Positions 11,421-41,280 of a stretch of DNA of 64,000 nt are shown here, in pieces (position 1 is the first letter of the stretch; each line of letters opens with the position of its first letter). The notes under the pieces are model-generated. The model was not told the DNA's origin, searched no databases, and saw only the letters and a program-made list of their open reading frames with translations. The stretch spans positions 25,721 to 89,720 of the forward strand of contig CAZJFL010000006.1 of NCBI GenBank assembly GCA_964545575.1, read 5' to 3'. The translations under genes and the position numbers were made by a program. Source of the stretch: an uncultured Planctomycetales bacterium. Lineage in GTDB: Bacteria; Omnitrophota; Gorgyraeia; Gygaellales; Profunditerraquicolaceae.

Positions 11421-12989
11421 TTGATGCCGCAGAAAAAAAGAGATAGCTGGGGTTCGCGCTTGGGGATTATTATGGCGGTTGCCGGTTCTGCAATCGGGCT
11501 GGGAAATTTCTTGAGGTTCCCTGCCAAAGCCGCCTCTAACGGCGGTGGCGCCTTTATGATCCCTTATTTTATTTCTTTATTTCTCTTAGGCATACCGCTG
11601 ATGTGGATTGAGTGGACTTTAGGTCGTTACGGAGGAGGTTTTGAACACGGGACCGCCCCTGGGATATTCCATAGCATCTGGCAGAAGAACCGTTTTATCA
11701 AATATTTCGGCGTCATCGGTATCTTCGGGCCGCTGGTAATTTTTATTTATTATACCTATATCGAATCCTGGACGCTGGCTTATAGTTTTTTTGCCCTGGC
11801 GGGGAAATTTTCCGGCATAGGCGATCAGGCCACCATGAAGAGTTTCTTAAGCGGTTTTCAGGGCCTGGAGAGCAATCATTTTTTTAACGGGATCGGGGCG
11901 GCATACTTCTTTTTTATCCTCACATTTCTGGTGAATACCTGGGTGATTTATTACGGCATAAAAGGCGGGATAGAAAAACTTTGCAAATGGGCGATGCCGC
12001 TTTTATTTGCCTGCGGTTTATTATTGTTAATCAGGGTTATAACTTTGGGCACTCCGGATTTGACTAAACCGGGATGGAATATAGCCAGTGGCTTTGGCTT
12101 CTTATGGAACCCGGATTTTTCCGCCCTAAAGTCAGCAAAGGTGTGGCTGGAGGCAGCCGGACAGATATTTTTTACTTTAAGCATCGGCATCGGAGTAATC
12201 CTTACTTACGCCAGCTATTTATCCAAGGGTGATGACGTAGTGCTTTCGGGATTGACCGCTTCCGCTACAAATGAGTTTGCCGAGATTATCTTAGGCGGAA
12301 GTATTGTGATCCCGGCGGCATTTGTTTTTTTCGGGCCCATAGACATCCAGTCAATTGCGCGCTCCGGCGTATTCAACCTAGGATTTGTAACCATGCCTTT
12401 AGTTTTAAATAAACTGCCCTGGGCGGCGATATTCGGTTTTAGCTGGTTTTTCCTCTTATTTTTGGCAGGTATAACCTCTTCGATTTCTTTGGCCCAGCCG
12501 GCAGTGGCATTCTTAGAAGACGAATTTAACCTCAACCGTAAAAAAGCGGTCTTGATATTTGCGGTGATTTCCTTTATACTATGTCAACCGGCAATATTTT
12601 GCCTTAAGAACGGCGTGGTGGATGAATTAGACTTCTGGGGCGGGACTTTTTGCCTGGTGCTCTTTGGCACTATCGAGACAATTCTTTTTGCCTGGGTTTT
12701 TGGCATGGAGAAGGCCTGGGATGAGATACATAAGGGCGCGGATATGCGGGTGCCTAAGGTTTATAAATTTATTATTAAGTATATCACGCCTTTATTTCTG
12801 TTTTTTATCTTAGGGATGTGGTTCTGGCAGGAGTGGCTGCCGGTAATCTTGATGAAAAAAGTTTCGGCAGCGAATCAGCCTTTTATCCTCGGCACAAGAT
12901 TGGGGTTATTACTTATGTTTTTGACGCTGGCGTTGCTGGTCAAGGTCGCCTGGCGCCATAAGCGCAAAGTTAAAGAGATGCCGGTATGA
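11421..12989 (+). CDS. Sodium-dependent transporter, neurotransmitter:sodium symporter (NSS/SNF) family
   Basis: N-terminal GSRLGIIMAVAGSAIGLGNFLRFP signature of LeuT-like transporters. About 12 TM segments, 522 aa. Confidence 0.9.
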   Translation: MMPQKKRDSWGSRLGIIMAVAGSAIGLGNFLRFPAKAASNGGGAFMIPYFISLFLLGIPLMWIEWTLGRYGGGFEHGTAPGIFHSIWQKNRFIKYFGVIGIFGPLVIFIYYTYIESWTLAYSFFALAGKFSGIGDQATMKSFLSGFQGLESNHFFNGIGAAYFFFILTFLVNTWVIYYGIKGGIEKLCKWAMPLLFACGLLLLIRVITLGTPDLTKPGWNIASGFGFLWNPDFSALKSAKVWLEAAGQIFFTLSIGIGVILTYASYLSKGDDVVLSGLTASATNEFAEIILGGSIVIPAAFVFFGPIDIQSIARSGVFNLGFVTMPLVLNKLPWAAIFGFSWFFLLFLAGITSSISLAQPAVAFLEDEFNLNRKKAVLIFAVISFILCQPAIFCLKNGVVDELDFWGGTFCLVLFGTIETILFAWVFGMEKAWDEIHKGADMRVPKVYKFIIKYITPLFLFFILGMWFWQEWLPVILMKKVSAANQPFILGTRLGLLLMFLTLALLVKVAWRHKRKVKEMPV

Positions 12990-13055
12990 AAGCCGGAGGG
13001 CTGTACTTTGGCTGGCCGTATTTTGGTTTATAAAAGTTTTTTCCAAAAAGGAGTT

Positions 13056-13448
13056 GCAATGAAAAAAGGGATGGCTTTTTTATTTTCTCTTCCTATAATA
13101 ATGATAATTATTTCGGGATGCCTTCCTGCAATTATTGTCGGTGGTGCGGTAGGGGCAGTGGGAGGTTATGCGGTAAGCAGGGATACCATACAGGGAGAGA
13201 CAGATAAGCCCTATGAGGTGCTTTGGAATTCAGCCACCACCGTTGCCCGGATCCGCGGCAAGCTAAAGTCAGAGGATGCGATCAAGGGCCGTATTGAATT
13301 GGAAGCGGAATCAAGCCGTGTGTATATCAGCCTGGATAGATTGACGCAGTCCACTACCAGAGTGAGAGTTTCTGCGCGCAAATACCATCTGCCGAATATC
13401 GCCCTTGCGCAGGATATCTTTGTCAAGGTAATGGAAGGAATACGCTAG
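13056..13448 (+). CDS. Small lipoprotein with glycine-zipper segment
   Basis: ATG at 13056 preceded by AAGGAG. Lipobox ISG-C. GGAVGAVGG glycine zipper. The ORF track offers 13008 as an alternative start. Confidence 0.5.
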   Translation, partial: AMKKGMAFLFSLPIIMIIISGCLPAIIVGGAVGAVGGYAVSRDTIQGETDKPYEVLWNSATTVARIRGKLKSEDAIKGRIELEAESSRVYISLDRLTQSTTRVRVSARKYHLPNIALAQDIFVKVMEGIR

Positions 13449-13460
13449 CCGAGGTAGCTC
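13447..13460 (+). repeat. 14-nt duplicate of the tRNA-Phe 5' end (AGCCGAGGTAGCTC)
   Basis: Identical to 13501-13514, 40 nt upstream of the intact tRNA. It overlaps the lipoprotein stop codon and is followed by the hairpin TCCGCCA-caaaaca-TGGCGGA. Confidence 0.5.
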
Positions 13461-13501
13461 TCCGCCACAAAACATGGCGGATTCGCCGATAAAAAAATTT
13501 A

Positions 13502-13573
13502 GCCGAGGTAGCTCAGTGGTAGAGCGCGGCCCTGAAAAGGCCGGCGTGGGGGGTCCGATTCCCTCCCTCGGCA
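13502..13573 (+). tRNA. tRNA-Phe (anticodon GAA)
   Basis: Hand-folded cloverleaf. Acceptor GCCGAGG/CCTCGGC, D-arm GCTC-AGTGGTA-GAGC, anticodon stem CGGCC/GGCCG with loop CTGAAAA, T-arm GGGGG-TCCGATT-CCCTC. No encoded CCA. Confidence 0.85.
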
Positions 13574-13574
13574 T

Positions 13575-13625
13575 AAATGAGCAGACGGCTTACGGAGCGA
13601 AAGCGACGTAAGCCGTAGCTGTTTT
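13575..13625 (-). repeat. Family-1 element fragment (copy D, inverted module)
   Basis: AATGAGCAGACGGCTTACGGAGCgaaagCGACGTAAGCCG is the reverse-orientation counterpart of the 3' module of copies B and C (…CCGTAAATTGTCTGCTCATT). Confidence 0.4.
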
Positions 13626-13667
13626 ATATACTGGCAACCAGCGTCTGCGAATTTATCCCGAGCCTAT

Positions 13668-13696
13668 GCCAAAAATTTTATTCTAAAATTTTTGGC
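13668..13696. repeat. Perfect palindrome GCCAAAAATTTTA-ttc-TAAAATTTTTGGC
   Basis: 13-nt arms with a 3-nt spacer. Confidence 0.6.
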
Positions 13697-13841
13697 AATG
13701 TTTAGGCGAGGGACATATATACAATTTCCAACCTATTATTCCGCAATAAATTACAATCTCCCGGTAACAATCTAGTATCTCTGGTGCCCAAATTGCGCCC
13801 ATCGCAATAATAGTAGAGCTTCTTTTTTAGTTTCGGATATT

Positions 13842-13857
13842 AAATTGCTTACCATTT
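13842..13857 (+). promoter_or_regulatory. Islet promoter/operator motif, copy 1 (AAATTGCTTACCATTT, then TATAAT 17 nt after TTACCA)
   Basis: One of three copies of TAAATTGCTTRCAATTTTG. TATAAT at 13880-13885. Precedes the 32-aa peptide ORF. Confidence 0.45.
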
Positions 13858-13896
13858 TGAGATGGAAGTGGTATAATTATAAAAAAAGAGGAGAAA

Positions 13897-13995
13897 TGAA
13901 AATAGCCATAGTAATTATAATAGTATTGGTAGTTGTTTTATTATTGTGCAAGAAGTTCTGTAAATCTTGTTGCAAAACCGATAAGAAAGAATAAA
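13897..13995 (+). CDS. Hypothetical 32-aa hydrophobic Cys-rich peptide (MKIAIVIIIVLVVVLLLCKKFCKSCCKTDKKE)
   Basis: Not in the ORF track because it is shorter than 60 aa. RBS AAGAGGAG 6 nt upstream. Preceded by motif copy 1 and a -10. One TM helix plus a CxxCC tail. Confidence 0.3.
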
Positions 13996-14172
13996 TAAGG
14001 TAACTATCCTTGGGAGCTGGAATACTCACCCGCCTCAAAGTAAAGGAACCGCTTAAGTAACCTAGCCCAGCCCCCATTTTTTCAATTCTTATAACTCGTT
14101 TTAATCGCAATAATTATATATATCTTTGTGATACTCTACAGATAAAAAAATAGAGAGGGGGCTTGAAGGCAG

Positions 14173-14364
14173 TTATTTAGGCGGTTCGTATTCCTCGTAA
14201 ATATCTTTTTTCATCTTTATTGTTTCTTTTAATCTGAATACCTCCTCGTCAAGTATATTTGTTTTGCTCCTTATTTTGGTTATTTCTTCAGTAATTAGCC
14301 GGTAACGGATTTCAAAACCCAAAAGAATAGCTAAAATGCATATAATGACAAATATCACATTCAT
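14173..14364 (-). CDS. Small membrane protein (N-terminal TM helix + coiled-coil)
   Basis: AGGAGG RBS on the minus strand (GAAAAGGAGGCGGTATG). 63 aa. Confidence 0.45.
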   Translation of the reverse strand: MNVIFVIICILAILLGFEIRYRLITEEITKIRSKTNILDEEVFRLKETIKMKKDIYEEYEPPK

Positions 14365-14498
14365 ACCGCCTCCTTTTCTTTAATTATATCATTAAAAATA
14401 AACAGATAAAAATAATTATATTATGAGGAAACTGCCTAATTTTCTCTTGCCAAATCCCCCCCCAGCCACCCCTTGTTATAACCATAAACCCGCTCGCT

Positions 14499-14514
14499 AA
14501 ATTGCTTGCAATTT
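14499..14514. promoter_or_regulatory. Islet palindromic motif, copy 2 (AAATTGCTTGCAATTT)
   Basis: Near-perfect 6-4-6 palindrome between divergent genes 14364(-) and 14735(+). Confidence 0.45.
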
Positions 14515-14734
14515 TGGAATTAAAGTAGGACAATTCTATTATAAAAAGGAGGGAGGTTATTAAGCCGAAGTGGCTAGAAAATGCGGCTGCTCTCTCTTAA
14601 GAACTGGTACAACTTATAGGGGCAGGTCATTATAACATTTCTTATTACATATGGTTACATAAACTGTCTAGTGTTTTGTGCCTACTGTTTTACTTCCCAT
14701 TTGCAAAATAGATTGATAAAAGGGAGATAATGCG

Positions 14735-15121
14735 ATGGCAAAGTACAGCGTGTTTTTTACGGGGGTGTGTATAGCGGCTTTGGGTATTTTGTTTCTGGGG
14801 CAGAATATATGCAATGCTTCATGTGAAGAGGAGTGCAAAGTTTCTAAGAGCTGCCTGAGTTATTCCGACTGTAATACCGCTCATGTGCAGTGCCTGGCTG
14901 CCTGCAAGGAAAAGGAAGCTTGGGATTTTGCGTCGAAGTCATACGAGAAAACTGTCGAGATCCAATCAAAGCTGATTGAGCATCTAGAAGGCCAGAATGT
15001 CGCTCTTGAAAGACTGCTTACGCTTATCGACTCTCTTATTACAAAAATCACCAAGATGAACTCGGAAAGCGAAGCCGGGCAGCAGCAAGGGCAAATTCAG
15101 GTAGAGCTGAATAAAGAATAA
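14735..15121 (+). CDS. Secreted/membrane-anchored Cys-rich coiled-coil protein (8 Cys in CxxxC-type spacing)
   Basis: N-terminal hydrophobic segment, then CNASCEEECKVSKSCLSYSDCNTAHVQCLAAC, then a heptad-like C-terminus. RBS GGGAGA. Confidence 0.5.
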   Translation: MAKYSVFFTGVCIAALGILFLGQNICNASCEEECKVSKSCLSYSDCNTAHVQCLAACKEKEAWDFASKSYEKTVEIQSKLIEHLEGQNVALERLLTLIDSLITKITKMNSESEAGQQQGQIQVELNKE

Positions 15122-15206
15122 AAGTAGGATATTTTTAGACAGGGGATGTTCCTCGGATGGGCACTCTATTTATGTAAAGAAGGTAGATAGTTTATATAAC
15201 TCACTA

Positions 15207-15222
15207 AATTGCTTACAATTTT
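15207..15222 (+). promoter_or_regulatory. Islet promoter/operator motif, copy 3 (AAATTGCTTACAATTT; TTACAA-17-TATAAT)
   Basis: -10 TATAAT at 15236-15241. Precedes the OMP gene. Confidence 0.5.
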
Positions 15223-15285
15223 GAAAAGAAAGCGGTATAATAAAATAATAAAGAATCAATTAAAGAGAAAAAAGGATGGTGGCTG

Positions 15286-16143
15286 ATGAAGAAATTATTT
15301 TCCTTGTCGGCATTATGTGCGTTATTTATATCAGTAGCCGGTTTAGCTACGCCAGCCTACGCTGGTAAATTTAACCTGAGTGCAGGAATAGGGATTGAAT
15401 ATATGAAGTATGAGGAACACTTTCCGGAGGATGCGTTAACCCCTTTTCCCGTAGATTCCGATGCCGAAGTGATCAATACCGTCGCTAGCGCTGTAGCCGA
15501 ATATACTTTCAATAATAAATTTTTTCTGGGAGCCAAGGGCGCAATCCCAGTCGGTAAAGGCGACGATACCGAAGAGTGGGAAGAGGCGGGTTTCCTTTTC
15601 CAGACTAATGACCTGGAGTACGGCTGGACGAGGGCTGATGCCTACGCCGGTTATACTTTCGCATTTCAAGGAGAAGATGTTATCGCTAACGAATTTTCTC
15701 CGTTTATAGGCATACGTTCTTCTTGGGCCAAGCAGGAGAGGAGTAATTTTGTAGTGGTGGGGGTTCCTACCCCCGGCCTTACGGCCACCGAAAAAATTAA
15801 TTCCTATGGGACGATCTTGGGCTTTAAGGCAGTAAATAGTTTATTCGATCAAAAGCTAGTCATCGGCACTAATTTTGAATGGGTTTTTCCTTTTGATGTG
15901 GAAGTTACTAACACAGCGATTCCCGGCATGGAGATAAATGCTAAAAAAGGATACACCTGGAAATTAGGGATAAGCGGGGCATATATTCTCTCCGAGCGTT
16001 GGTCAATTGGTAGCGAACTATATGGCGGCAGGATGCATTGGAAGGGAAGCGATTGGGTCCCCTATGGAATCGGTTTCGTAAAATGGCCGAGTAATGATAC
16101 CACCTATTTCGGCGGCAACGCGTCTTTGACCTATAAATTTTAA
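15286..16143 (+). CDS. Putative outer-membrane beta-barrel protein
   Basis: Signal peptide …ATPAYA↓. Alternating amphipathic strands. C-terminal …LTYKF with terminal Phe, an OMP signature. Confidence 0.6.
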   Translation: MKKLFSLSALCALFISVAGLATPAYAGKFNLSAGIGIEYMKYEEHFPEDALTPFPVDSDAEVINTVASAVAEYTFNNKFFLGAKGAIPVGKGDDTEEWEEAGFLFQTNDLEYGWTRADAYAGYTFAFQGEDVIANEFSPFIGIRSSWAKQERSNFVVVGVPTPGLTATEKINSYGTILGFKAVNSLFDQKLVIGTNFEWVFPFDVEVTNTAIPGMEINAKKGYTWKLGISGAYILSERWSIGSELYGGRMHWKGSDWVPYGIGFVKWPSNDTTYFGGNASLTYKF

Positions 16144-16177
16144 TTAGCTTAAGCATACTTTATTCCCCGTTAGTTTT

Positions 16178-16219
16178 ATCCCCTTTTTACGTTTATTAAA
16201 CGCAGAAAGGGGATTTTTT
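16178..16219 (+). terminator. Rho-independent terminator (ATCCCCTTT…AAAGGGGAT + T6)
   Basis: 9-bp stem and T-run downstream of the OMP gene. Confidence 0.6.
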
Positions 16220-16497
16220 ATCTCTAACTCGCCTTCCGGGAAGATCAGATTACCCTCTCTTTAGAAAGAATTCTTTAAAGCAAGGGACACTCTTACTTTG
16301 CCTTAAGAACCGTCCCTGAATTTAGGTGTTAGATTTTGCCACCCCTTGCGTCTATTATAGCAGGAGGGCGAAATGAAGCCAACCAAGCAGCTAATCCAAG
16401 AAACTAAGGTTATTTTAAATTAAGGATATCTGTAGCTCCAGAAAAACGACCAATAATAATCCGGTAATTGAGGCCAAGAGGTTAAAAAAAAGAAAGA

Positions 16498-17040
16498 GTG
16501 CAGGAAAGGCGGGTTATCCCGGATAGCGAATTATTCAAATTCTTTGAAGAGGCTAAGAAGAGAAGCGAGCGGGTAAATTGGTATGGGTATTTCGTAACTT
16601 TGTATATGACTTGCTCAAGAGTAAGCGAAATAACCTCCCTCAAGAAATCGCAGATTAAAAATGGTATTATACAATTTCATAAAACTAAAGCTAAACCAAA
16701 AGCCGTCTTTATACACCCTCAATTAAGGCCTATTTTAGAAGAGGCCATTAAACGCTCAAAGGTTGAGCTGGTATTTCCTAATATAAATGGGGAAGAGATA
16801 AACCGCAGGAAGATAAGGGATAGAATGATAGAGCTATGTCGCCTGGTCGGGATACCTAAGGCCACGCCACACGATTTAAGACATACTTTTGCCAGCAGAA
16901 TTGATATAGAAAGCTATGTAAAACAAAAGATAGGTGGTTGGGTTAATAAAAGAGTGCTGGAGGATACCTATAACCATCCGGCAGAGGATATTGTAAGACA
17001 GGCATATTTCGGGGTTGATTTAATGCCTAAGTCAGAATAA
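16498..17040 (+). pseudogene. Truncated tyrosine recombinase/integrase (catalytic domain only)
   Basis: Box I Arg (CSRVSE), HDLRHTFAS (H-x-x-R) and …GW…EDTYNH (catalytic Tyr) are present. The reading frame opens only 12 nt upstream of the GTG (TAA at 16483), so the roughly 100-aa N-terminal core-binding domain is absent. Confidence 0.65.
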
Positions 17041-17123
17041 ACGCCACACTAACGCCACAAGGGGTTGACTAAATGAATAAACTATATTATAATTCAAGGA
17101 GTTATCACAGAGGGGGTGCTTTA

Positions 17124-17135
17124 TCCCTCCCTCGG
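17124..17135 (+). repeat. att-like direct repeat of the tRNA-Phe 3' end (TCCCTCCCTCGG)
   Basis: 12/12 identity to 13560-13571, and 15/17 with flanks. Lies 84 nt past the integrase stop. Confidence 0.4.
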
Positions 17136-17148
17136 TACCACCTAAAAA

Positions 17149-17176
17149 GAGAGGGTTTTCATAACCCCTCTTTTTT
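17149..17176 (+). terminator. Rho-independent terminator (GAGGGTT-ttcat-AACCCCTC + T6)
   Basis: Hairpin plus T-run. Confidence 0.55.
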
Positions 17177-17426
17177 ATTATAGTTGTAGCGTAATGGGCT
17201 GTAATTTAAGTAGTTGCGGGGCCTGGTAAGTTTTTGCGGACCCCTTGATTCTTAGTGGCGCGTTAATAGCCACAGAATTATAATCTGTGAAGAGGCGATG
17301 GATGCATAGCCTTGGATATATTTCAAAAGTATTCTCATAAGTGCTTGCTTATGATATAATTGTCGAAAGCAGTTTCAATGAAAAAGATGATAGACAAAAA
17401 TTTCCTTTAATGCCCTAGAGGCAATC

Positions 17427-18173
17427 GTGTATATGTTAGAGAATATTTGTAAACAAGCTATATTTGAAGGAAAAAAAATTGATTTAACAGGCTGTAATTA
17501 TGGAAGCCGCGATTATGAATTTCCCCATCAGAAAGTGGATTTTATCGATACGCCATGTCCGTATTATTTTTTTCTCGCAGGCCTTGTTAGATCTCAAAGA
17601 TTGACCAATATATTAGAGATAGGAACGAATTGGGGAGGCTCTATCATGTCATTGAGCAGGGGATTACATAGTCAAGACCTCGGGAAAAGTAAACTGGTCA
17701 CAGTGGACATAACTTATGCGAATGAGGAAGGTTTTAAAAAGTATCCCCACATCAAAAGAATATACGGAGACGCGTTAAATAAAAAAGTGGTAAAGGAAGT
17801 TGTAGCGTGTTTCAACAAGGATATCGACTTAATGTTTATTGATTCGGTACACGAATATGAGCATGTAAAGCTGTGCCTATATATTTACGCTAATATGCTA
17901 AAACCAAAATATATAATTCTTGATGACATATGTTACAATTACTCGATGAGAAAGTTATGGTTAGAGTTAACGAAAGAATTCGGGAATAGAGCTTTTGATG
18001 CGACAGAAATAAGCATGAGAGAGCGGGAAGCGGGTCTCGGTATCATTGATTGGGGGCATGCTACTTGGCGATACCGGAAATATAAAATATATTGGATTAA
18101 AATGTGCTCTATAAAGATAAAAATTTTAAATCGTATTCTTACGCTTATCCCCAAATATGCCCATCCAATGTAG
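17427..18173 (+). CDS. Class I SAM-dependent methyltransferase-like protein (CmcI/Methyltransf_24-like)
   Basis: Motif I LEIGTNWGGS, acidic motif II VDI, motif IV FIDSVH. AT-rich codon usage continuous with the islet. Confidence 0.5.
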   Translation: MYMLENICKQAIFEGKKIDLTGCNYGSRDYEFPHQKVDFIDTPCPYYFFLAGLVRSQRLTNILEIGTNWGGSIMSLSRGLHSQDLGKSKLVTVDITYANEEGFKKYPHIKRIYGDALNKKVVKEVVACFNKDIDLMFIDSVHEYEHVKLCLYIYANMLKPKYIILDDICYNYSMRKLWLELTKEFGNRAFDATEISMREREAGLGIIDWGHATWRYRKYKIYWIKMCSIKIKILNRILTLIPKYAHPM

Positions 18174-18226
18174 AAACATCCCTAAATAAAACTAAACATC
18201 AATAAACATCCGGACAATCCAATTTA

Positions 18227-18253
18227 TTGACAATAAAGTTGTTATGTTATAAT
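18227..18253 (+). promoter_or_regulatory. Sigma70-like promoter (TTGACA-15-TGtTATAAT)
   Basis: Consensus -35 and extended -10 upstream of the oxidoreductase gene. Confidence 0.4.
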
Positions 18254-18393
18254 ATGTTGTATCGACGGCGCGTTTAGCTGCAGGCAAAGGCAGTTAAAAA
18301 GAGAGGTTTTTGTAGTTCTCCCTTTTTATTTACAGTAATGCATGATGCAGGTATACTATAAAGAATAAATAGTTAACTTTTCGGATAAATTTT

Positions 18394-19938
18394 ATGCTTA
18401 ACAATAATTATGATGTGATTGTAATCGGAGCGGGAATGGGCGGGCTGACCTGCGCCCTGAAATTGGCCGCAGCCGGCAAGAAGGTTTTAGTCCTAGAAAG
18501 GCAGCCGGCACCGGGAGGCATTGCCACAAGTTTTAAGCGCAACGGCTTTACTTTTGAGTCAGTACTGCATTATGTGGACGGGCTTGCTCCTGATGGCGAA
18601 ATACGGAATTTCCTAGATGAGCATGGCGTAAGCAAGAAGGTTGATTTTATAGAAGTAAAAGAATTCGGCAGGGTGATTTATCCGGAACATGATTTCCTGA
18701 TCAGGAACGATTTTGATTCCCTTAAGCTGTGGCTAAAAAGTAATTTCCCGCAGGATGAAGAGGGGATAGAAAGGTTCTTTCGCGATATAGATAAGTTTTA
18801 CCGACAGTTAGACCGTTTCGCAGAATCTAGGATCCCGGATTGGCTTAAACTTCTTCTCTCTCCGTTTATTTACCCCTCGATAATAAAGACATCCTGCCTT
18901 ACCTTAGAGCAGTTCATTACCAAGAGGATTAAAGATAAGCGGGCGCGCTCTATCATCGGTACCATCTGGGGTTTTCTCGGGCCTGCGCCTTCGGAAATAT
19001 CTGCGTTTTATTTTTTAATCGTATTCAGGGGCTGCTGGGGGGAAAGCACGGCGTTTATCAAAGGGGGCTTCAGCAGTTTATTTAATGCCATAGTAGAAAG
19101 AATCAGAGAGTTGGGTTCAGAGGTAAGATTTAATAGTGTGGTCAAAGAGATTATTACCGGACAAAACAGGCGTGTCCGGGGAGTGCGGACAATAGACGGC
19201 GAAGAATTTACGGCTTCTGCGGTGATTTCAAATGCCAACGCTCTCGATACGCTCGCCAAGCTCATTGATTGTGATCCGCTTAAGGAAGCCTATGCCCAAA
19301 AGCTTTCTTCGATGAAAAAATCGCTTTCCGGCACACAGCTTTATCTGGGATTAGATATTCCCATAACAACACTGGGGATGTCCCATATACTTATGTGCAT
19401 TAATACTACCTATGACCATGATCAGAATTGCAGGTATTGTATTTGCAGCGATTACCAACGCTGTAATCTCCTGGTGACGAGCCACTCCCAGCTTGACCCG
19501 GGATTAGCCCCATCTGAAAAATCTACGCTTTACGCGATGACTCTGGATAATTATGCAAACTGGGATAATCTGACACCGGAAGAGTACGAAAAGAAGAAAA
19601 AGGAGTTCGCCGATATTATTTTGGCGCGCCTGGAAAAATATCTACCGGGTATCTCGGGCCATATTGAGATTTTAGAAGTAGCTACTCCTAAGACAATGGA
19701 GAAATTTGGTTTGCTGGCAGAGGGAGCGTTGTATGGGTTTGCCCAGACCCCGGGGCAATCCAGCATCAACCGTCTCAGTCAGGAGACTAAAATTAAAGGC
19801 CTGTTTCTTGCCGGCGCCTGGACTCAGCCGGGTGCCGGAATACACGGTTGTCTTGTTTCGGGCCAAGATGCGGCGGATTCGGTTTTAAAATTACTTAAAA
19901 AAGCAAAAACCCAGCCCCCGCGTGCAGGGGCTGGGTAG
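18394..19938 (+). CDS. FAD-dependent oxidoreductase, phytoene-desaturase/amine-oxidase (CrtI-like) family
   Basis: N-terminal dinucleotide-binding motif DVIVIGAGMGGLTCALKLAAAGKKVLVLE. 514 aa. Confidence 0.75.
   Translation: MLNNNYDVIVIGAGMGGLTCALKLAAAGKKVLVLERQPAPGGIATSFKRNGFTFESVLHYVDGLAPDGEIRNFLDEHGVSKKVDFIEVKEFGRVIYPEHDFLIRNDFDSLKLWLKSNFPQDEEGIERFFRDIDKFYRQLDRFAESRIPDWLKLLLSPFIYPSIIKTSCLTLEQFITKRIKDKRARSIIGTIWGFLGPAPSEISAFYFLIVFRGCWGESTAFIKGGFSSLFNAIVERIRELGSEVRFNSVVKEIITGQNRRVRGVRTIDGEEFTASAVISNANALDTLAKLIDCDPLKEAYAQKLSSMKKSLSGTQLYLGLDIPITTLGMSHILMCINTTYDHDQNCRYCICSDYQRCNLLVTSHSQLDPGLAPSEKSTLYAMTLDNYANWDNLTPEEYEKKKKEFADIILARLEKYLPGISGHIEILEVATPKTMEKFGLLAEGALYGFAQTPGQSSINRLSQETKIKGLFLAGAWTQPGAGIHGCLVSGQDAADSVLKLLKKAKTQPPRAGAG
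19910..19935. terminator. Bidirectional terminator hairpin (CCCAGCCCC-cgcgtgca-GGGGCTGGG)
   Basis: 9-bp perfect stem between convergent genes. A-run on one side and T-run on the other. Confidence 0.55.
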
Positions 19939-19958
19939 TTTATCTGGTTGCTCTAAAT

Positions 19959-20159
19959 TTATATTCTGGTTACGTTGGTCGCTTGTTCTCCTTTGGGCCC
20001 TTGAGTGACCTCGAATTCTACTTCCTGGCCTTCTTCCAGGCTTTTATAGCCGTCACCTTTAATTGCGCTATAGTGCACAAACAGGTCTTTGCCGTCTTCG
20101 CTGGTGATAAAGCCATAACCCTTTTGGTTCGAAAACCACTTTACTTTGCCTTTTGCCAT
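19959..20159 (-). CDS. cspA: Cold-shock protein, CspA family
   Basis: 66 aa with RNP1 KGYGFI and RNP2 VHYS motifs. Long 5' UTR. Confidence 0.9.
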
Positions 20160-20345
20160 CAGTTACCTTTCACCTCCCCTCATAATGAAAAAACCGCAAA
20201 GCCCTTTTTTAAATTCTATGCTTTACGGTTTTAGAATTACCTGTATCTTTTATACTCATAAACTTTGTTCTGCTTAAAATGAGTATAGCAAGTTTTTAGG
20301 ATTTGTCAATGTTTTTTTAATACCGCTTCTGATAACGAGAATATA

Positions 20346-20374
20346 TTGACTTATTTTCTAAATTATTGTATAAT
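20346..20374 (+). promoter_or_regulatory. Sigma70 promoter TTGACT-17-TATAAT for rpsO-pnp
   Basis: Near-consensus hexamers. AGGAGG RBS at 20394. Confidence 0.55.
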
Positions 20375-20406
20375 ATTTTAACTTAAGAAGAAAGGAGGTA
20401 AAGGAA

Positions 20407-20676
20407 GTGGTTTTGGTAAAAGAAAGAAAAGGCAAGATTATAGACGATTTTAGGATTCATCCCAGGGATACCGGTTCGGCTGATGTCCAGATCGCGCTTT
20501 TGAGCGCAAGGATCAATAACCTGGGGGAGCATTTCAAGCAGCATAAAAAAGACTTCCATTCTCGTCGCGGCCTCTTAATGTTAGTCGGAAAGCGCCGCAG
20601 GCTTCTCAATTACCTCAAGAAAAAAGACGTCAAGAAATACGAAGAAGTCATCGAGAAACTTAGCTTACGAAAATAA
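20407..20676 (+). CDS. rpsO: 30S ribosomal protein S15
   Basis: GTG start, 89 aa. …[17 protein letters not shown]…HSRRGLL… is typical of S15. Confidence 0.9.
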
Positions 20677-20703
20677 TCCTAAACATCACCCAATATAAAT
20701 ATT

Positions 20704-22794
20704 ATGCAGAATAATACCCTGAAAGTCAGATTCGGACGCGATGATTTAATCTTAGGCACTGGTACGGTTGCCAAACAGGCAAACGGCTCGGTAACGGTCC
20801 AGTACGGCGGGACTGTAGTTTTAGTCACTGCCTGTATGTCTGGTGAAGCAAAGGAAGGCCAGGATTTTTTCCCCCTCACCGTTGAGTATCAGGAGAAGAC
20901 ATACGCAGCCGGCAGGATTCCCGGAGGCTTCTTTAAGAGGGAGGGCCGTCCTTCGGAAAGCGAGATTTTAACCGCGAGGTTAATCGATCGGCCTATCCGG
21001 CCGCTCTTTCCCGACGGCATGTTTAATGAAGTGCAGATTATGGCGATTGTCTTATCCAGCGACGGAGAAAACGACCCCGATATCCTAGCCGTAATCGGCG
21101 CCTCAGCGGCTTTATCCATATCCGATATACCCTTTAGCGGCCCCTTGGCATGCTGCCGCGTGGGAAGAGTCAATAATGAGTTTGTCTTAAATCCTACTTA
21201 CGCACAGCTTGAGCTTTCGGATTTAGACCTGGTTTTAGTAGCGAATACCTTAGGTATCGTCATGCTTGAATCGAAGGCTAAAGAAGTGTCTGAAGAGATA
21301 TACCTGGAAGCGGTAAAATTCGGCTTTGAGAATACCAAAGATATAATGCATCTAGAGGAAGAGTTCGCCCGTAAATACGGCATCCCCAAGGCAGACGTTC
21401 AGCTTAAAAATATAGATCCTTCCCTGAAATCAAAGATTGAAGTTTTAGCTAAGGAGAAGCTGAAGAAAATATATCAGCTGAGCAAAAAGGAAGAGCGGGA
21501 AGAGGGGGTGGTTTTACTGGTTAAGGAATTAGAAGCCAGCCTCACCAACGAAGGGTATTTGCCCGCGGATATAAAAATGGCCTTGGTAGAAATAGAAAAA
21601 GAGCAGGTCAGGAATAAAATACTTAATGAAAATCTGCGCGTGGACGGGCGCGGCTTTGGCGATATCAGGCAGATCACCTGCGGCGTATCTGTTTTGCCGC
21701 GTACTCATGGCTCCAGCCTTTTTACCCGCGGCCAGACTCAGAGCTTGGCGATTACTACCCTTGGCACAGGAGAAGACGAGCAGCTGATTGAGGCGCTGGA
21801 GGGGAAAACATATAAATCTTTTATGTTGCATTATAGCTTTCCGCCTTTTAGCGTAGGCGAGACCGCGCCGGTGCGCGGGCCGGGCCGCAGGGAAATAGGC
21901 CACGGCGCGCTTGCGGAAAAATCGCTTCTGGCGGTAATGCCGGCAAAAGAAAAGTTTCCTTATACCATCAGGGTAGTTTCGGAGGTTTTAGAATCTAACG
22001 GCTCCTCGAGCATGGCGACAGTGTGTGCGGCGACTTTGTCGCTGATGGATGCCGGAGTCCCGATTAAGGATGCGGTGGCGGGTATTGCTTTGGGGCTGAT
22101 CAAAGAGGGTGATAAAGCTGCGATATTGACTGATATCGCCGGTTTAGAAGACCATTTCGGGGATATGGATTTTAAGGTTGCCGGGACTAAAACCGGAGTG
22201 ACTGCAGTGCAGATGGATTTAAAAATAAACGGCATCAGTATAGATTTATTGCGTTCCTGCCTCGCTCAGGCAAAAGAAGGCAGGCTTTTTATTCTGGATA
22301 AGATGAATGCTGCTTTGGCCGGCCCGCGCCAGGAGCTATCCAGCTATGCCCCGCGCATAGAAGTACTTAAAATAAATACCGAGAAGATCGGCGAACTGAT
22401 CGGCCCGGGCGGCAAGAATATCAAAGCGATAATTGCGGCAACCGGCGCCAGTATCGATATCAAAGATGACGGTACTGTCCTGGTCGGCTCTACTGAAGCG
22501 GCTAAGTCCGATGAGGCGATTAAGATGATCAAGGCCATCACCGATGATGTGGAGGTCGGCCGCATCTATATCGCCAAAGTAAAACGGATCATGCCCTTTG
22601 GCGCTTTCTGCGAGATCGCTCCGCGTAAAGAGGGGCTGGTGCATGTCTCCGAATTATCCAGCCGTTTTGTCAAAAGCGTAGAAGAGATAGTGAAAATCGG
22701 GGATGAAATCAAAGTCAAGGTCGTCGGCATAGATGAATTGGGCCGGATAAATTTAAGCAAGAAACAGGCAGAAGCAGATACAGACAGCAAGTGA
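20704..22794 (+). CDS. pnp: Polyribonucleotide nucleotidyltransferase (PNPase)
   Basis: Two RNase PH domains, then KH and S1 domains. Sits in the rpsO-pnp arrangement. Confidence 0.95.
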   Translation: MQNNTLKVRFGRDDLILGTGTVAKQANGSVTVQYGGTVVLVTACMSGEAKEGQDFFPLTVEYQEKTYAAGRIPGGFFKREGRPSESEILTARLIDRPIRPLFPDGMFNEVQIMAIVLSSDGENDPDILAVIGASAALSISDIPFSGPLACCRVGRVNNEFVLNPTYAQLELSDLDLVLVANTLGIVMLESKAKEVSEEIYLEAVKFGFENTKDIMHLEEEFARKYGIPKADVQLKNIDPSLKSKIEVLAKEKLKKIYQLSKKEEREEGVVLLVKELEASLTNEGYLPADIKMALVEIEKEQVRNKILNENLRVDGRGFGDIRQITCGVSVLPRTHGSSLFTRGQTQSLAITTLGTGEDEQLIEALEGKTYKSFMLHYSFPPFSVGETAPVRGPGRREIGHGALAEKSLLAVMPAKEKFPYTIRVVSEVLESNGSSSMATVCAATLSLMDAGVPIKDAVAGIALGLIKEGDKAAILTDIAGLEDHFGDMDFKVAGTKTGVTAVQMDLKINGISIDLLRSCLAQAKEGRLFILDKMNAALAGPRQELSSYAPRIEVLKINTEKIGELIGPGGKNIKAIIAATGASIDIKDDGTVLVGSTEAAKSDEAIKMIKAITDDVEVGRIYIAKVKRIMPFGAFCEIAPRKEGLVHVSELSSRFVKSVEEIVKIGDEIKVKVVGIDELGRINLSKKQAEADTDSK

Positions 22795-38929: not shown

Positions 38930-39075
38930 CCCCTTTTTAGTATTTAAATGTTTTTAAAATAAAAGGTGCGGGATAAATTCAGCCAACGAACTTATGTTCG
39001 CTTGCCGCAAAAGCGGCACACCGGCTGTTCCAATACAGCCGGGTGTTATGCTCCATAAGTTCGGGCTTCATTTAA
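38930..39075 (+). repeat. Family-1-related intergenic element, copy E
   Basis: CCCCTTTTTAG…TAAAAGGTGCGGG hairpin plus AACTTATGT / CATAAGTTCG modules. Overlaps the ORF-track N-terminal extension of xerC. Confidence 0.4.
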
Positions 39076-39962
39076 TGCGTGAATTGATAGACATATTTTT
39101 AAACTATTTATCCGTGGAGCGGGGATTATCCCGCAATACCATGGTTTCCTATAAGGAAGACCTTAATTATTATCTGGAGTATCTCGCCCGGCGCCATATC
39201 GATGCGATCTCTAAGACTAATAAAAATGACATAGTAAGTTTTATGCTGGAGCAGAAAGATAAAGGGCTAGCCGCCAACTCCGTTGCCAGGCGCCTGGCAG
39301 CAATAAAGGTATTTTACCGCTTTTTGGTCCGGGAGAGGATCTTAAAAGAAGATGCCACCACTTTAATAGATTCCCCTAAATTATGGAAGAAGATTCCCGA
39401 GACGCTTTCGCTGAACGAAGTGGAGACCCTGCTTGCTCAACCGGATATCAGAAATAAACAGGGAATAAGGGATAAGGCGATTTTAGAGACGCTCTACGCT
39501 ACCGGGATGCGCGTTTCTGAGGCGGTAAACTTAAGGACCGATAACGTGAATCTGGACGTCGGGTTCCTGCGCTGTATCGGTAAAGGCAATAAAGAACGGG
39601 TCATACCTTTGGGCAAAAAAGCGATAGCCAGCGTCAGAAGGTACCTCCAAGGCAGCCGGCCGCAGTTATTAAAGAGAAAAGAAAGCGACTTTCTTTTTGT
39701 CAGCCGCTTAGCAAAAAAGCTTTCCCGGCAGTCGATTTGGAAGATGATTAAAAAATATGCCAAACAAGGCCGGATCAGGAAACCTTTAAGGCCGCATATC
39801 TTAAGGCATTCTTTTGCCACCCATCTTCTGGAGAGGGGGGCGGACCTGCGTTCGGTACAGGAAATGCTGGGGCACGCCAATATCTCGACCACCCAGATTT
39901 ATACGCACATAAACAAAGACAGGCTGAAGACTATTCATAAGATGTTCCATCCCAGGCCGTGA
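38994..39962 (+). CDS. xerC: Site-specific tyrosine recombinase, XerC/XerD family
   Basis: …YATGMRVSE…HILRHSFATHLLE…GHANISTTQIYTH catalytic motifs. The true start is probably the ATG at about 39076 (MRELIDIF…), about 295 aa. Confidence 0.85.
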   Translation: MFACRKSGTPAVPIQPGVMLHKFGLHLMRELIDIFLNYLSVERGLSRNTMVSYKEDLNYYLEYLARRHIDAISKTNKNDIVSFMLEQKDKGLAANSVARRLAAIKVFYRFLVRERILKEDATTLIDSPKLWKKIPETLSLNEVETLLAQPDIRNKQGIRDKAILETLYATGMRVSEAVNLRTDNVNLDVGFLRCIGKGNKERVIPLGKKAIASVRRYLQGSRPQLLKRKESDFLFVSRLAKKLSRQSIWKMIKKYAKQGRIRKPLRPHILRHSFATHLLERGADLRSVQEMLGHANISTTQIYTHINKDRLKTIHKMFHPRP

Positions 39963-40002: not shown

Positions 40003-41280
40003 ATGAGCAAAGATTATTTAGACAAGTTGCCGAAAGAGATTAATGATTTAGTTTATTTAGCCAGGGATATCTCTGCTAAAAACCATGTGCCGGTATATTT
40101 AGTAGGCGGGGTGGTCCGGGATTTAATTTTAGGGGTAAAAAACCTGGACTTAGATATAGTGGTTAGCGGGGACGGGATTAAGTTTGCGCGCCAGTTCTCT
40201 CTCGCCCTAAACGCCCGGATCGTCGAGCATGCCAGATTCGGCACGGCTACGGTTATGCTGCCGGATAATATAAAGGTAGATTTTGCCACAGCCAGAAAGG
40301 AAGTTTACCCCGAGCCCGCTCATCTGCCGCAGGTATCGGCCGGCACCTTAGAAGACGATCTGTATCGAAGGGACTTTACCATTAATGCCATGGCCATCGG
40401 CATAGGCGAAATAAACTTCGGAAAAATCATAGACTTTTTCTCCGGCAGATCCGATTTAAATAAGAAGAGGATACGCATATTGCATGATGCCAGTTTTATT
40501 GACGACCCTACGCGTATCTTAAGGGCAGTGCGTTTTGAAAAAAGATACAATTTCAAGATCGAGCCCGGGACGCTTCAATGCTTAAAGGAAGCGGTGGACC
40601 TGGAAATGTTAGAAAGGGTCCAGCCGCAGCGGTTACGCGACGAGATCATCCTCATCTTAAAAGAAAGAGAACCCCTAAAATATATCAGGCGCATAGACGA
40701 ATTATCGGGGTTGGATTTTATTAACCGGCATTTATTCCTTTCCCAGAAGGTCAATAATCTATTAAGCTCTGCGCAAAAAGAGATTATCTGGTTTAAAAAG
40801 ACATATCCAGAGCGCCGCCGGCTCGACACGTGGCTGGTCTATTTTCTGGCCCTGATGGAACCCTTGAGTATTAAGGAAGTTAAAGCGGTATGCGCAAAGT
40901 TCGTCTTTGGCGGCGGAGAAGAAAAAAGGATAATAAATTATAAAAAATTCGGCAGGTCGCCGGTTAAAGAATTGAGCCGCGCAAAAATCAGGCCGGCGCG
41001 GATTTTTGCTTTGCTTGAGCCTTTAAGCTATGAGGTGATTATAATCCTGAAGGCTAAATACGAGGCTGCTGTTTTTAAGAAACATGTCCGTGATTTTTTC
41101 GCAATCTATAACGGTATGCGTATCATGGCCAGGGGTGCCGATCTGCATAAATTAGGCGTTGCCCCCGGGCCTGATTACCAGAAAATCTTTGCCACAGTCT
41201 TGGAGGCAAAGCTTGCAGGCAGGGTGAGGACTAAAGAAGAAGAGTTAGCACTGATTAAGAGGCTGATAAGAAAGAAATGA
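40003..41280 (+). CDS. tRNA nucleotidyltransferase (CCA-adding) / poly(A) polymerase family protein
   Basis: Pol-beta head motif YLVGGVVRDLILG…DLDIV. Confidence 0.8.
   Translation: MSKDYLDKLPKEINDLVYLARDISAKNHVPVYLVGGVVRDLILGVKNLDLDIVVSGDGIKFARQFSLALNARIVEHARFGTATVMLPDNIKVDFATARKEVYPEPAHLPQVSAGTLEDDLYRRDFTINAMAIGIGEINFGKIIDFFSGRSDLNKKRIRILHDASFIDDPTRILRAVRFEKRYNFKIEPGTLQCLKEAVDLEMLERVQPQRLRDEIILILKEREPLKYIRRIDELSGLDFINRHLFLSQKVNNLLSSAQKEIIWFKKTYPERRRLDTWLVYFLALMEPLSIKEVKAVCAKFVFGGGEEKRIINYKKFGRSPVKELSRAKIRPARIFALLEPLSYEVIIILKAKYEAAVFKKHVRDFFAIYNGMRIMARGADLHKLGVAPGPDYQKIFATVLEAKLAGRVRTKEEELALIKRLIRKK

Follow-up and report, generated by a model that had tools for sequence, protein, structure and literature searches.

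Probable remnant of a small integrative element at the 3' end of a tRNA-Phe gene in an uncultured Omnitrophota bacterium

In a 64,000-nucleotide (nt) stretch of the genome of an uncultured Omnitrophota bacterium (contig CAZJFL010000006.1; hereafter, the window), an intact tRNA-Phe gene is followed by about 3.56 kb of AT-rich DNA (hereafter, the islet), which ends, shortly after a gene for a short tyrosine recombinase, in a second copy of the last nucleotides of the tRNA. How did this DNA come to lie there, and can it still move? A reading made from the DNA letters without any database search (the sequence-only reading) had proposed a decayed integrative element at tRNA-Phe, and this proposal is now supported by empty sites in relatives, by the composition of the islet, and by the truncation of its integrase. 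We put at about 90% the probability that positions 13572-17135 are what is left, now immobilised, of a small integrative element, one from a tyrosine-integrase lineage whose target in Omnitrophota and related uncultured bacteria is the tRNA-Phe 3' end.

The tRNA gene, the two attachment (att) sites, and their trailers are laid out as follows (window coordinates, strand, feature).

13502..13573, +, intact tRNA-Phe(GAA) gene (ARAGORN; Rfam tRNA, 63.5 bits)
13560..13571, +, attL core TCCCTCCCTCGG, consisting of the last T-loop base, the T-stem 3' strand, and most of the acceptor 3' strand (alignment to empty sites)
13574..13632, +, element-supplied tRNA trailer made up of TAAATGAGC, a hairpin (GGCTTACG...CGTAAGCC), and a T-run (read from the sequence; diverges from empty-site trailers directly after GGCA)
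17124..17141, +, attR, the displaced native tRNA-Phe 3' end TCCCTCCCTCGG-t-ACCA, with the encoded CCA kept and one C-to-T change (homology to relatives)
17142..17218, +, native tRNA-Phe trailer, holding the terminator hairpin (17143-17184) and the beginning of another conserved hairpin (GCGTAAT...) (78-89% identity to the tRNA-Phe trailers of relatives)

The recurrence of the tRNA 3'-end 12-mer at 17124-17135, on which the sequence-only reading was built, was borne out by exact and one-mismatch searches, and the 12-mer turned out not to be common, its only copies in the 64-kb window being those at 13560-13571 and 17124-17135. Of 3,000 simulations (first-order Markov model, 10 kb downstream), 19 produced a stretch of 12 nt or more identical to part of the final 30 nt of the tRNA (p ~0.006), so the repeat alone is suggestive, not decisive. 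The tRNA-Phe is identical or nearly identical to that of more than 40 Omnitrophota loci. The attL core makes up the final 12-14 nt of the gene, which now has no encoded CCA, the native CCA and terminator having been replaced by the element-side trailer at 13574-13632. Since CCA-less tRNA-Phe genes are also found in many relatives and the window encodes a tRNA nucleotidyltransferase-family protein (40003-41280), the rebuilt gene should remain serviceable.

We then compared the locus with its counterparts. Eighty syntenic loci, mostly from metagenome-assembled genomes labelled Candidatus Omnitrophota, were retrieved with the sodium-symporter gene at 11424-12989 (69-86% amino-acid identity), and tRNAs and the proteins of the window were mapped onto them. 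A blastn search of 13574-19958 against these loci showed that 17124-17195 is 81-89% identical to the tRNA-Phe 3' end and the sequence following it in nine of them (L021, L038, L040, L051, L017, L094, L049, L066, and L030). Over 17124-17208 the identity to the continuation of tRNA-Phe in relatives was 78-89%, with the onset of homology exactly at the core, and the trailer at 17142-17218 was matched (78-89%) in L021, L038, L040, L051, L017, L094, L105-L108, L111-L113, L115, and L116. Metagenomes were scanned with an uninterrupted-site query, in which the T-loop side of the tRNA, distinct in sequence from what flanks the second 12-mer on the left, was joined to the ACCA-trailer side. Twelve contigs were recovered, and in nine of these one continuous stretch matches both the window up to 13573 and 17124-17208, the overlap being the core. 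Empty tRNA-Phe sites, with the tRNA 3' end running uninterrupted into sequence of the kind that follows the second 12-mer, were found in this way in more than 15, about 20, related Omnitrophota loci (genomes and metagenome contigs).

The attL side of the window tracks these empty sites through the core and then diverges (GGCA followed by TAAATGAGC...), while the attR side diverges to the left of the core and tracks them from the core onward, which is the pattern classically left by site-specific integration. The junctions reconstructed from it are ...GGTCCGATTCCCTCCCTCGGCACCACCTAAAAAGAG for attB and ...GGGGGTGCTTTATCCCTCCCTCGGCATAAATGAGCAG for attP. Because the two segments of the window are contiguous in relatives, with the core as their overlap, 17124-~17218 is the displaced native tRNA end (attR) and the ~3.56 kb in between was inserted by site-specific recombination. 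The C-to-T change in the displaced copy (GGtACCA) is consistent with drift in a fragment that is no longer functional. Neither the islet proteins nor the products of the next two genes downstream, a methyltransferase-like protein and a 514-amino-acid (aa) oxidoreductase, had a tblastn match in the 80 syntenic loci, save short FAD-binding-motif matches of the oxidoreductase, and no islet genes were found in the 12 metagenome loci. Conserved gene content beside tRNA-Phe, which would have counted against the sequence-only reading, was thus seen at 0 of the 80 loci.

The second line of evidence comes from the integrase gene and the DNA around it.

16282..16423, +, orphan promoter- or 5'-region-like sequence, then a 16-codon open reading frame (ORF) (short similarity to L024 and L049)
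16486..17040, +, truncated tyrosine integrase gene, catalytic domain only; 180 aa from the GTG at 16498 (Pfam PF00589; PHROG integrase)
17039..17059, +, two tandem copies of (A/T)AACGCCACA just past the integrase stop codon (candidate arm-type integrase-binding sites)
17065..17093, +, promoter-like site TTGACT-17-TATAAT, lying in the right arm and facing outward (11/12 consensus match)

The 180-aa product, Int180, matched the Pfam family Phage_integrase at 61.5 bits (cut-off, 27.1) over profile positions 5-169 of 172, and no Pfam or NCBIfam match to an N-terminal domain was found in it. R41, K64, H125-x-x-R128, W148, and Y158 are all present, and the motifs SRVSE, HDLRHT, GGW, and TYNH align with those of relatives. 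The frame opens at 16486, 12 nt before the GTG and directly after an in-frame TAA (16483-16485); the other two upstream frames are also stopped, and no convincing Shine-Dalgarno sequence precedes the GTG. The description given in the sequence-only reading, that of a catalytic-domain-only gene which keeps R...HxxR...Y and whose frame opens 12 nt before its GTG, therefore holds in all its parts. The gene lies at the far end from the tRNA and reads outward, and the second 12-mer begins 83 nt past its stop codon.

A word-indexed protein search with Int180 returned only the protein itself and one 131-aa fragment; an exhaustive HMMER search returned 398 relatives. All the close relatives uncut by contig ends are 355-372 aa long and match Int180 from residue ~170, as follows.

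P0003, 358 aa, 50% identity to Int180, aligned region 176-352
P0004, 372 aa, 47% identity to Int180, aligned region 181-368
P0005, 355 aa, 44% identity to Int180, aligned region 177-352
P0007, 366 aa, 39% identity to Int180, aligned region 174-358

The shorter matches are mostly fragments of 59-160 aa, and P0002 is encoded on a 1.1-kb contig. When the full-length relatives were compared with the window by tblastn, homology started at 16486. Relative to P0003-P0007, Int180 is thus without ~170 N-terminal residues, comprising the arm-binding and core-binding parts, and the loss of the N-terminal domain suspected earlier is confirmed by the alignment from residue ~170. The best NCBIfam model was weakly Xer-like (49-50 bits, far below the cut-offs), no sequence relative of Int180 was found in the PDB at E <= 0.01, and the matches among PHROGs were to phrog_1 (2e-27) and phrog_216 (9e-23). 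The window also encodes a housekeeping XerD (38994-39962; 382.8 bits, above the equivalog cut-off), whose gene adjoins that of the tRNA nucleotidyltransferase-family protein.

The DNA next to the genes of full-length relatives shows what an intact element of this type may look like. In L102, a gene for an HTH_17 (excisionase-type) protein overlaps the start of the integrase gene (int), and ~75 nt past the int stop codon lies GATTCCTCTCCTCGGCACCA, with a native-type terminator and the conserved 'TTTAGGCG' behind it. L103 has this HTH_17-int pair too, and there GATTCCCTCCCTCGGCATAAAT comes next, at the contig end; the spacing between int stop and core in these two loci is 75-95 nt. L104 has only a tRNA 3'-end-like core, at the aligned position. 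Such a core follows int at a similar distance in three of the four closest relatives, two of the cores being clearly from tRNA-Phe; three relatives have a contig extending past int, and two of these three adjoin tRNA-Phe fragments. The right arms of four elements, those of the window, L102, L103, and L104, align: in each, short tandem repeats come first behind the int stop codon, and an AT-rich stretch that resembles a promoter separates them from the core. The tandem repeats, which are element specific and occur at the same position in L102, L103, and L104, are candidate arm-type integrase-binding sites. As for the promoter-like site at 17065-17093, it lies between the int stop codon and attR and reads into the displaced tRNA fragment and the native terminator; similar motifs stand at the aligned position in L103 and L102.

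No HTH_17 gene is seen in the islet. A permissive tblastn search of 13574-16485 with four integrases, two excisionases (Xis), and neighbouring proteins revealed nothing credible that could be a remnant of the N-terminal domain, of Xis, or of other element proteins. Instead, 16282-16368 is similar to sequences just upstream of the starts of unrelated genes in two relatives, with 84.8% identity over 46 nt in L024 (19464-19509) and 86% over 42 nt in L049 (17887-17928). Since no trace of HTH_17 is present and 16282-16368 is promoter-like, the simplest account would be an internal deletion of xis and the 5' half of int, with 16282-16423 as the probable remainder on its upstream side, and since no remnant of xis or of the N-terminal domain is found, the islet is probably immobile. 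The integrase of L049 was considered as the parent type and dropped, because its identity to Int180 over the catalytic domain is 26% and the tRNA-Phe gene there keeps its native trailer. The mobile-element-rich stretch that follows tRNA-Phe in L049 holds another catalytic-domain-only tyrosine recombinase ORF (13117-13662; 181 aa), Vsr-like and Dcm-like genes, and an HTH_17-int pair at 20443-21533.

The course of events can be read from these observations. The element recombined with the tRNA gene inside the core of 12-14 nt, between the last T-loop base and the acceptor 3' strand. The tRNA gene was rebuilt with the element's own 3' end, which has no encoded CCA, and with the element's own hairpin terminator, while the native 3' end with its CCA and terminator was pushed 3.56 kb downstream. 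A later internal deletion probably took the excisionase gene and ~170 N-terminal codons of int and so joined an unrelated promoter-like region to the catalytic half. Devoid of the arm-binding and core-binding domains and of Xis, the islet could then no longer excise, and its cargo would be fixed in the chromosome.

Several points weigh against this reconstruction. The relatives with empty sites are 66-78% identical to the window in their flanking DNA, and an empty allele of the same species was not found: all 15 population contigs (L001-L015), obtained from one sample set by exact-protein look-ups of the integrase fragment, the oxidoreductase, and a barrel protein of the islet (see below), are occupied and 99.7-100% identical to the window. 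The reconstructed attP, as would be expected in a circular form, had no exact match in a viral contig collection. The deletion is deduced from absence, and the similarity of 16282-16368 to other loci is short (42-46 nt). The intact catalytic residues of Int180 leave room for residual activity. Finally, a variant of the element-side trailer is found 3' of tRNA-Phe in L018 (12967-13010), the first 60-80 nt being common to both and the stem carrying compensatory changes; this TAAATGAGC-type trailer could have been left there by a related element, or it could be a second type of native trailer, and the attR evidence is unaffected by it.

The composition of the islet is that of foreign DNA. The GC content of 13574-17123 is 39.6%, compared with a background of 46.7% (standard deviation, 1.2%; z -6.1), and thus lower than in any equally large background window; delta*, which measures the dinucleotide signature, is 65, against a background maximum of 59. 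The marked AT-richness noted in the sequence-only reading is therefore real. It also continues, as stated there, through the methyltransferase-like gene at 17427-18173 (Methyltransf_24/CmcI), with 35.5% GC over 17136-18393 (z -5.6), and it stops before the oxidoreductase gene at 18394-19938, which has a native-like GC content of 46.7% and belongs to the CrtI family by NCBIfam, at 212.8 bits and thus below the model cut-off of 238.1. The further suggestion, that the element may once have been larger and have included the methyltransferase gene, found no support for this element, since the native trailer (17136-~17218) intervenes. Lying beyond that trailer, the methyltransferase gene is outside the int-linked element, and its cassette appears to be a separate AT-rich segment in a generally hypervariable zone. 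The cassette is flanked by a repeat, the trailer terminator at 17143-17184 recurring at 18295-18336 (42 nt, 71% identity) with GGCA before the second copy. The repeat at 18295-18336 was tried as a firm second attR and dropped as too degenerate; it could represent an older att site, now decayed, or have arisen by chance.

Could the islet nevertheless be the proximal part of a larger composite or tandem island reaching to ~18336 or 19958, with the methyltransferase cassette as an older element of the same kind that was pushed downstream? The AT-richness on to 18393 and the flanking repeat with its GGCA would fit such an island, as would the lack of the methyltransferase and oxidoreductase genes at this locus in all the relatives and the tandem islets with tRNA fragments in L022. 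However, the hairpin at 18295-18336 is degenerate, has no tRNA 3' fragment beyond GGCA, and gave no blastn match to the trailers of relatives, native-trailer homology belonging to the copy at 17143-17184 instead, and two-copy repeats of 71% identity can arise by chance in AT-rich DNA. Moreover, no recombinase remnant accompanies the methyltransferase gene, the oxidoreductase gene has a native-like GC content, and the variable segments of relatives are often of ordinary GC content with housekeeping-like genes (two-component systems, radical-SAM genes), so the zone varies by other means too. Given the degeneracy of the second copy and the missing tRNA fragment, we regard an older insertion of this kind as unlikely.

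A degraded prophage or phage satellite, as opposed to a non-viral integrative element, would likewise account for a tyrosine integrase with matches to phrog_1 and phrog_216 and for integration into a tRNA gene, which is typical of temperate phages. Against this, no phage structural, packaging, or replication genes were found in the islet, only the integrase having a meaningful PHROG match; the interiors of the L102 and L104 elements encode MerR, STAS, a BsobI-type endonuclease, and a resolvase, and no Pfam domain indicating a virion protein; and, as mentioned, the reconstructed attP was not matched exactly in the viral contigs. A viral origin thus seems quite improbable.

Int180 could also be a functional catalytic-domain-only tyrosine recombinase, acting at the att sites or elsewhere. 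Its ORF is intact, with all six catalytic residues, the gene is called in every assembly, and L049 offers a second recombinase ORF of nearly the same length. Yet the uncut close relatives are all longer (355-372 aa), the stop codon 12 nt upstream of the GTG coincides with the point where the homology of full-length relatives begins, no convincing Shine-Dalgarno sequence and no xis gene are present, and the lost N-terminal domain would be required for use of the candidate arm-type repeats (17039-17059). To our knowledge, tyrosine recombinases need the core-binding domain to clamp DNA. Neither a circular form nor an empty allele was seen in the population. On all these points together, a working recombinase is very unlikely. 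That the repeat is a coincidence, the AT-rich segment being native lineage-specific DNA or having arrived by a route that is not site specific, can be practically dismissed: a 12-nt chance match occurs in ~0.6% of simulations and the interval between tRNA-Phe and cspA varies without an integrase in many relatives, but 80 nt of native-trailer homology directly follow the second 12-mer and an integrase gene precedes it, with two of the three relatives extending past int having tRNA-Phe fragments at the same position.

An immobilised element being the preferred reading, we asked what it carries. Between the two copies of the 12-mer, ORFs are found at 13845/13896-13994, 14173-14364 (- strand), 14735-15121, 15286-16143, and 16498-17040, the last being that of Int180; the other features of the islet are as follows.

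13667..13697, no strand assigned, perfect 14-nt inverted repeat TGCCAAAAATTTTA/TAAAATTTTTGGCA near the left end of the islet (repeat search)
13836..13888, +, promoter/operator repeat, copy 1 (AAATTGCTTACCATTT ... TGGTATAAT), ahead of the small-peptide gene (repeat search, promoter scan, motif search)
13896..13994, +, 32-aa hydrophobic peptide with a Cys/Lys-rich tail (MKIAIVIIIVLVVVLLLCKKFCKSCCKTDKKE) (ORF listed from 13845, 49 aa; GAGGAG, Shine-Dalgarno-like, 5 nt before the ATG)
14173..14364, -, 63-aa protein; membrane helix at the N terminus, then a charged tail resembling a coiled coil (ORF list; gene call in independent assemblies)
14493..14545, +, promoter/operator repeat, copy 2, with the perfect palindrome AAATTGC-TT-GCAATTT (repeat and motif search)
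14558..14635, +, 78-nt leader ahead of the Cys-rich gene (83% identity to L066 12548-12625)
14735..15121, +, 128-aa Cys-rich protein, exported or anchored in the membrane, whose C-terminal half is a coiled coil (ORF list; signal or anchor sequence)
15200..15252, +, promoter/operator repeat, copy 3 (AAATTGCTTACAATTT ... GGTATAAT) (repeat search, promoter scan, motif search)
15286..16143, +, 285-aa outer-membrane beta-barrel protein with a signal peptide and the C terminus ...LTYKF (AlphaFold model)
16178..16220, +, hairpin and T-run terminator after the barrel gene (repeat search; sequence)

None of the 32/49-aa, 63-aa, 128-aa, and 285-aa products could be assigned to a Pfam, NCBIfam, or PHROG family, and homologues of the small proteins and of the Cys-rich protein were absent from all the loci fetched. 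The AlphaFold model of the 285-aa protein, built with six homologues, has a mean predicted local distance difference test score (pLDDT) of 80.3 and shows an all-beta barrel behind a signal helix; its ~14 predicted strand segments are not a count of barrel strands. The best PDB matches of the model were the omptins Pla/OmpT and the adhesin OpcA (2x55, 1i78, 2vdf; TM 0.57-0.66, 9-14% identity), which confirms at the level of fold that this is an outer-membrane protein. No omptin family match was obtained with Pfam, so the likeness to omptins and OpcA, which lies in a predicted barrel of similar size and fold, would be one of fold only. This bears out the description in the sequence-only reading of small secreted, membrane, and Cys-rich proteins plus an outer-membrane protein, none with housekeeping homology. 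Only six barrel homologues were found, one of them labelled Omnitrophica at its source; the genes of the two that were examined are chromosomal and have other outer-membrane functions as neighbours (DUF1302/DUF1329, TonB-dependent receptor, CsgG); the islet copy would therefore be a captured paralogue of a small protein family. To judge by predicted localisation, the cargo most plausibly alters the cell envelope.

Each of the three copies of the 53-nt repeat (13836, 14493, 15200) heads one cargo unit (in this order, the hydrophobic peptide, the Cys-rich protein, and the barrel) and holds a near-palindrome, AAATTGC-TT-RCAATTT, overlapping the -35 region, followed by a TATAAT-type -10. The near-palindromic 16-mer AAATTGCTTRCAATTT, found at 13842-13857, 14499-14514, and 15206-15221, is likely a shared operator, and the islet as it now stands does not encode the corresponding regulator; no further copy of the motif occurs in the window, and none lies upstream of the barrel homologues of other genomes. 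The 78-nt leader at 14558-14635 had no match in Rfam. Its counterpart in L066 heads the gene of an FAD-dependent oxidoreductase in a tRNA-Phe-adjacent variable region, and the two regions are otherwise unrelated. The hairpin that now ends tRNA-Phe (GCAGACGGCTTACG...CGTAAGCCGT, 13574-13618) is 89% identical to a 5' untranslated region in L049 (9698-9741, opposite strand) and may be a dispersed palindromic repeat of these genomes. Many of the population assemblies (L001-L015) break near the tRNA (13392-13660) or inside the methyltransferase gene (17771-18096), and in L005 a 1-nt indel splits the methyltransferase ORF; the breaks may stem from low coverage or from strain variation that the assemblies left unresolved.

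The order of genes around the insertion site is conserved among the relatives and runs from an SNF transporter and a DUF3568 lipoprotein through tRNA-Phe and a variable segment to a cspA-like gene on the opposite strand and tRNA-Thr(CGT). Across relatives, the length of the variable segment runs from 57 bp to ~8 kb, against 6.4 kb in the window; it is 190 bp or shorter in eight loci and 57-86 bp in L046, L047, L054, L068, L077, and L084. Across the phylum it holds restriction-modification, toxin-antitoxin, and two-component systems. In L022, the locus with the most similar SNF transporter, tRNA-Phe is followed by two tandem islets without an integrase, which end in copies of 39 nt and 20 nt of the tRNA 3' end. 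The variability of the interval and the tandem islets of L022 make the islet of the window one instance of a recurrent process. Beyond the cspA-like gene (20160-20406), the window has rpsO-pnp in the place of tRNA-Thr, so the locus is also rearranged on its far side. An Rfam search of 13000-20500 found nothing beyond the tRNA and a sub-threshold match to the cspA thermoregulator.

The 5' side of the tRNA gene shows a repeat of its own. At 54 nt upstream of the gene, 13-15 nt of the tRNA-Phe 5' end (TAGCCGAGGTAGCTC) recur exactly (window 13446-13501), and next come a hairpin (TCCGCCA-CAAAACA-TGGCGGA) and TTCGCC. This arrangement was also seen in L033 (3097), L073 (12121), L022 (12502), L024 (12815), L017 (3552), L068 (12189-12211), and L111-L113, the copy being 13-23 nt long and lying between 38 nt and 1.3 kb from the gene. 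At tRNA position 7, which is either G or A, the copy always agrees with the local tRNA, and the hairpin carries compensatory changes in L022. The native promoter and leader of L073 stand upstream of the copy, so 43 nt and a new 5' end look inserted, and in L068 a DUF1778-like antitoxin and GNAT toxin pair lies between the 23-nt copy and the tRNA, 1.3 kb apart. The copy may be the scar of an integration into the 5' half of the gene, or part of a structured leader.

Elements with a tyrosine integrase that target tRNA genes with a crossover at the 3' end are textbook knowledge, and a catalogue by Williams from 2002 is said to list tRNA-gene-integrated islands with such integrases and a crossover at the T-loop or 3' end. 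The features of such islands were found here: a start at an intact tRNA gene, a distal direct repeat with a reconstructable attB, absence from relatives, an integrase gene beside an att site, and an atypical composition. Like them, the islet is inserted at the tRNA 3' end, a replacement 3' end keeps the tRNA intact, the displaced fragment forms the distal repeat, and several islands can stack at one tRNA. Unlike them, it is very small (3.56 kb), its int lies far from the tRNA, reads outward, and is cut to the catalytic domain, and xis is gone. It also resembles "anchored" remnant islands with degenerate integrases, such as the cryptic P4-like int pseudogenes at tRNA loci of E. coli, in which a truncated integrase fixes the cargo in the chromosome and the att repeats are still recognisable; it differs from these in that the catalytic residues are intact and the N-terminal part is cleanly lost, where P4-like pseudogenes have scattered frameshifts, and in that its integrase is not P4-like. 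Apart from int, no islet ORF had a Pfam or NCBIfam match, so no relaxase or conjugation gene of the kind found in integrative and conjugative or mobilisable elements was seen, in a search that covered proteins and left transfer origins (oriT) outside. A description of tRNA-linked islands in Omnitrophota was not found in the literature searched. What is new is therefore membership, namely, an integrase-Xis lineage and its attB in Omnitrophota that the literature searched did not contain; the kind itself has long been known.

More tentatively, the islet may be one trace left by small tRNA-Phe-specific elements of a lineage not yet described (integrase of 355-372 aa, overlapping HTH_17 Xis, conserved right arm with element-specific tandem repeats), which would have repeatedly seeded and abandoned cargo between tRNA-Phe and cspA, the same tRNA being hit on its 5' side as well. 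We consider this possible, though on balance doubtful. Were it true, the interval would be a phylum-wide plasticity zone, and if the 3' and the 5' copies were both integration scars, as the side observations on the 5' copy would require, one tRNA gene would serve as a two-sided landing pad.

The understanding of how tRNA-targeting elements work is unchanged by the islet. For annotation, the genes at 13845-17040 are to be taken as probable horizontally acquired cargo, and the 180-aa "integrase" as a remnant and not as a working recombinase. Should these organisms or surrogates become tractable, the integrase lineage could serve as a tool for site-specific integration. Omnitrophota are uncultured and their mobile elements barely described; the locus provides a concrete attB and an integrase-Xis lineage with a recognisable attP layout, and it shows the interval between tRNA-Phe and cspA to be a hot spot at which these bacteria exchange envelope-related and other accessory genes.

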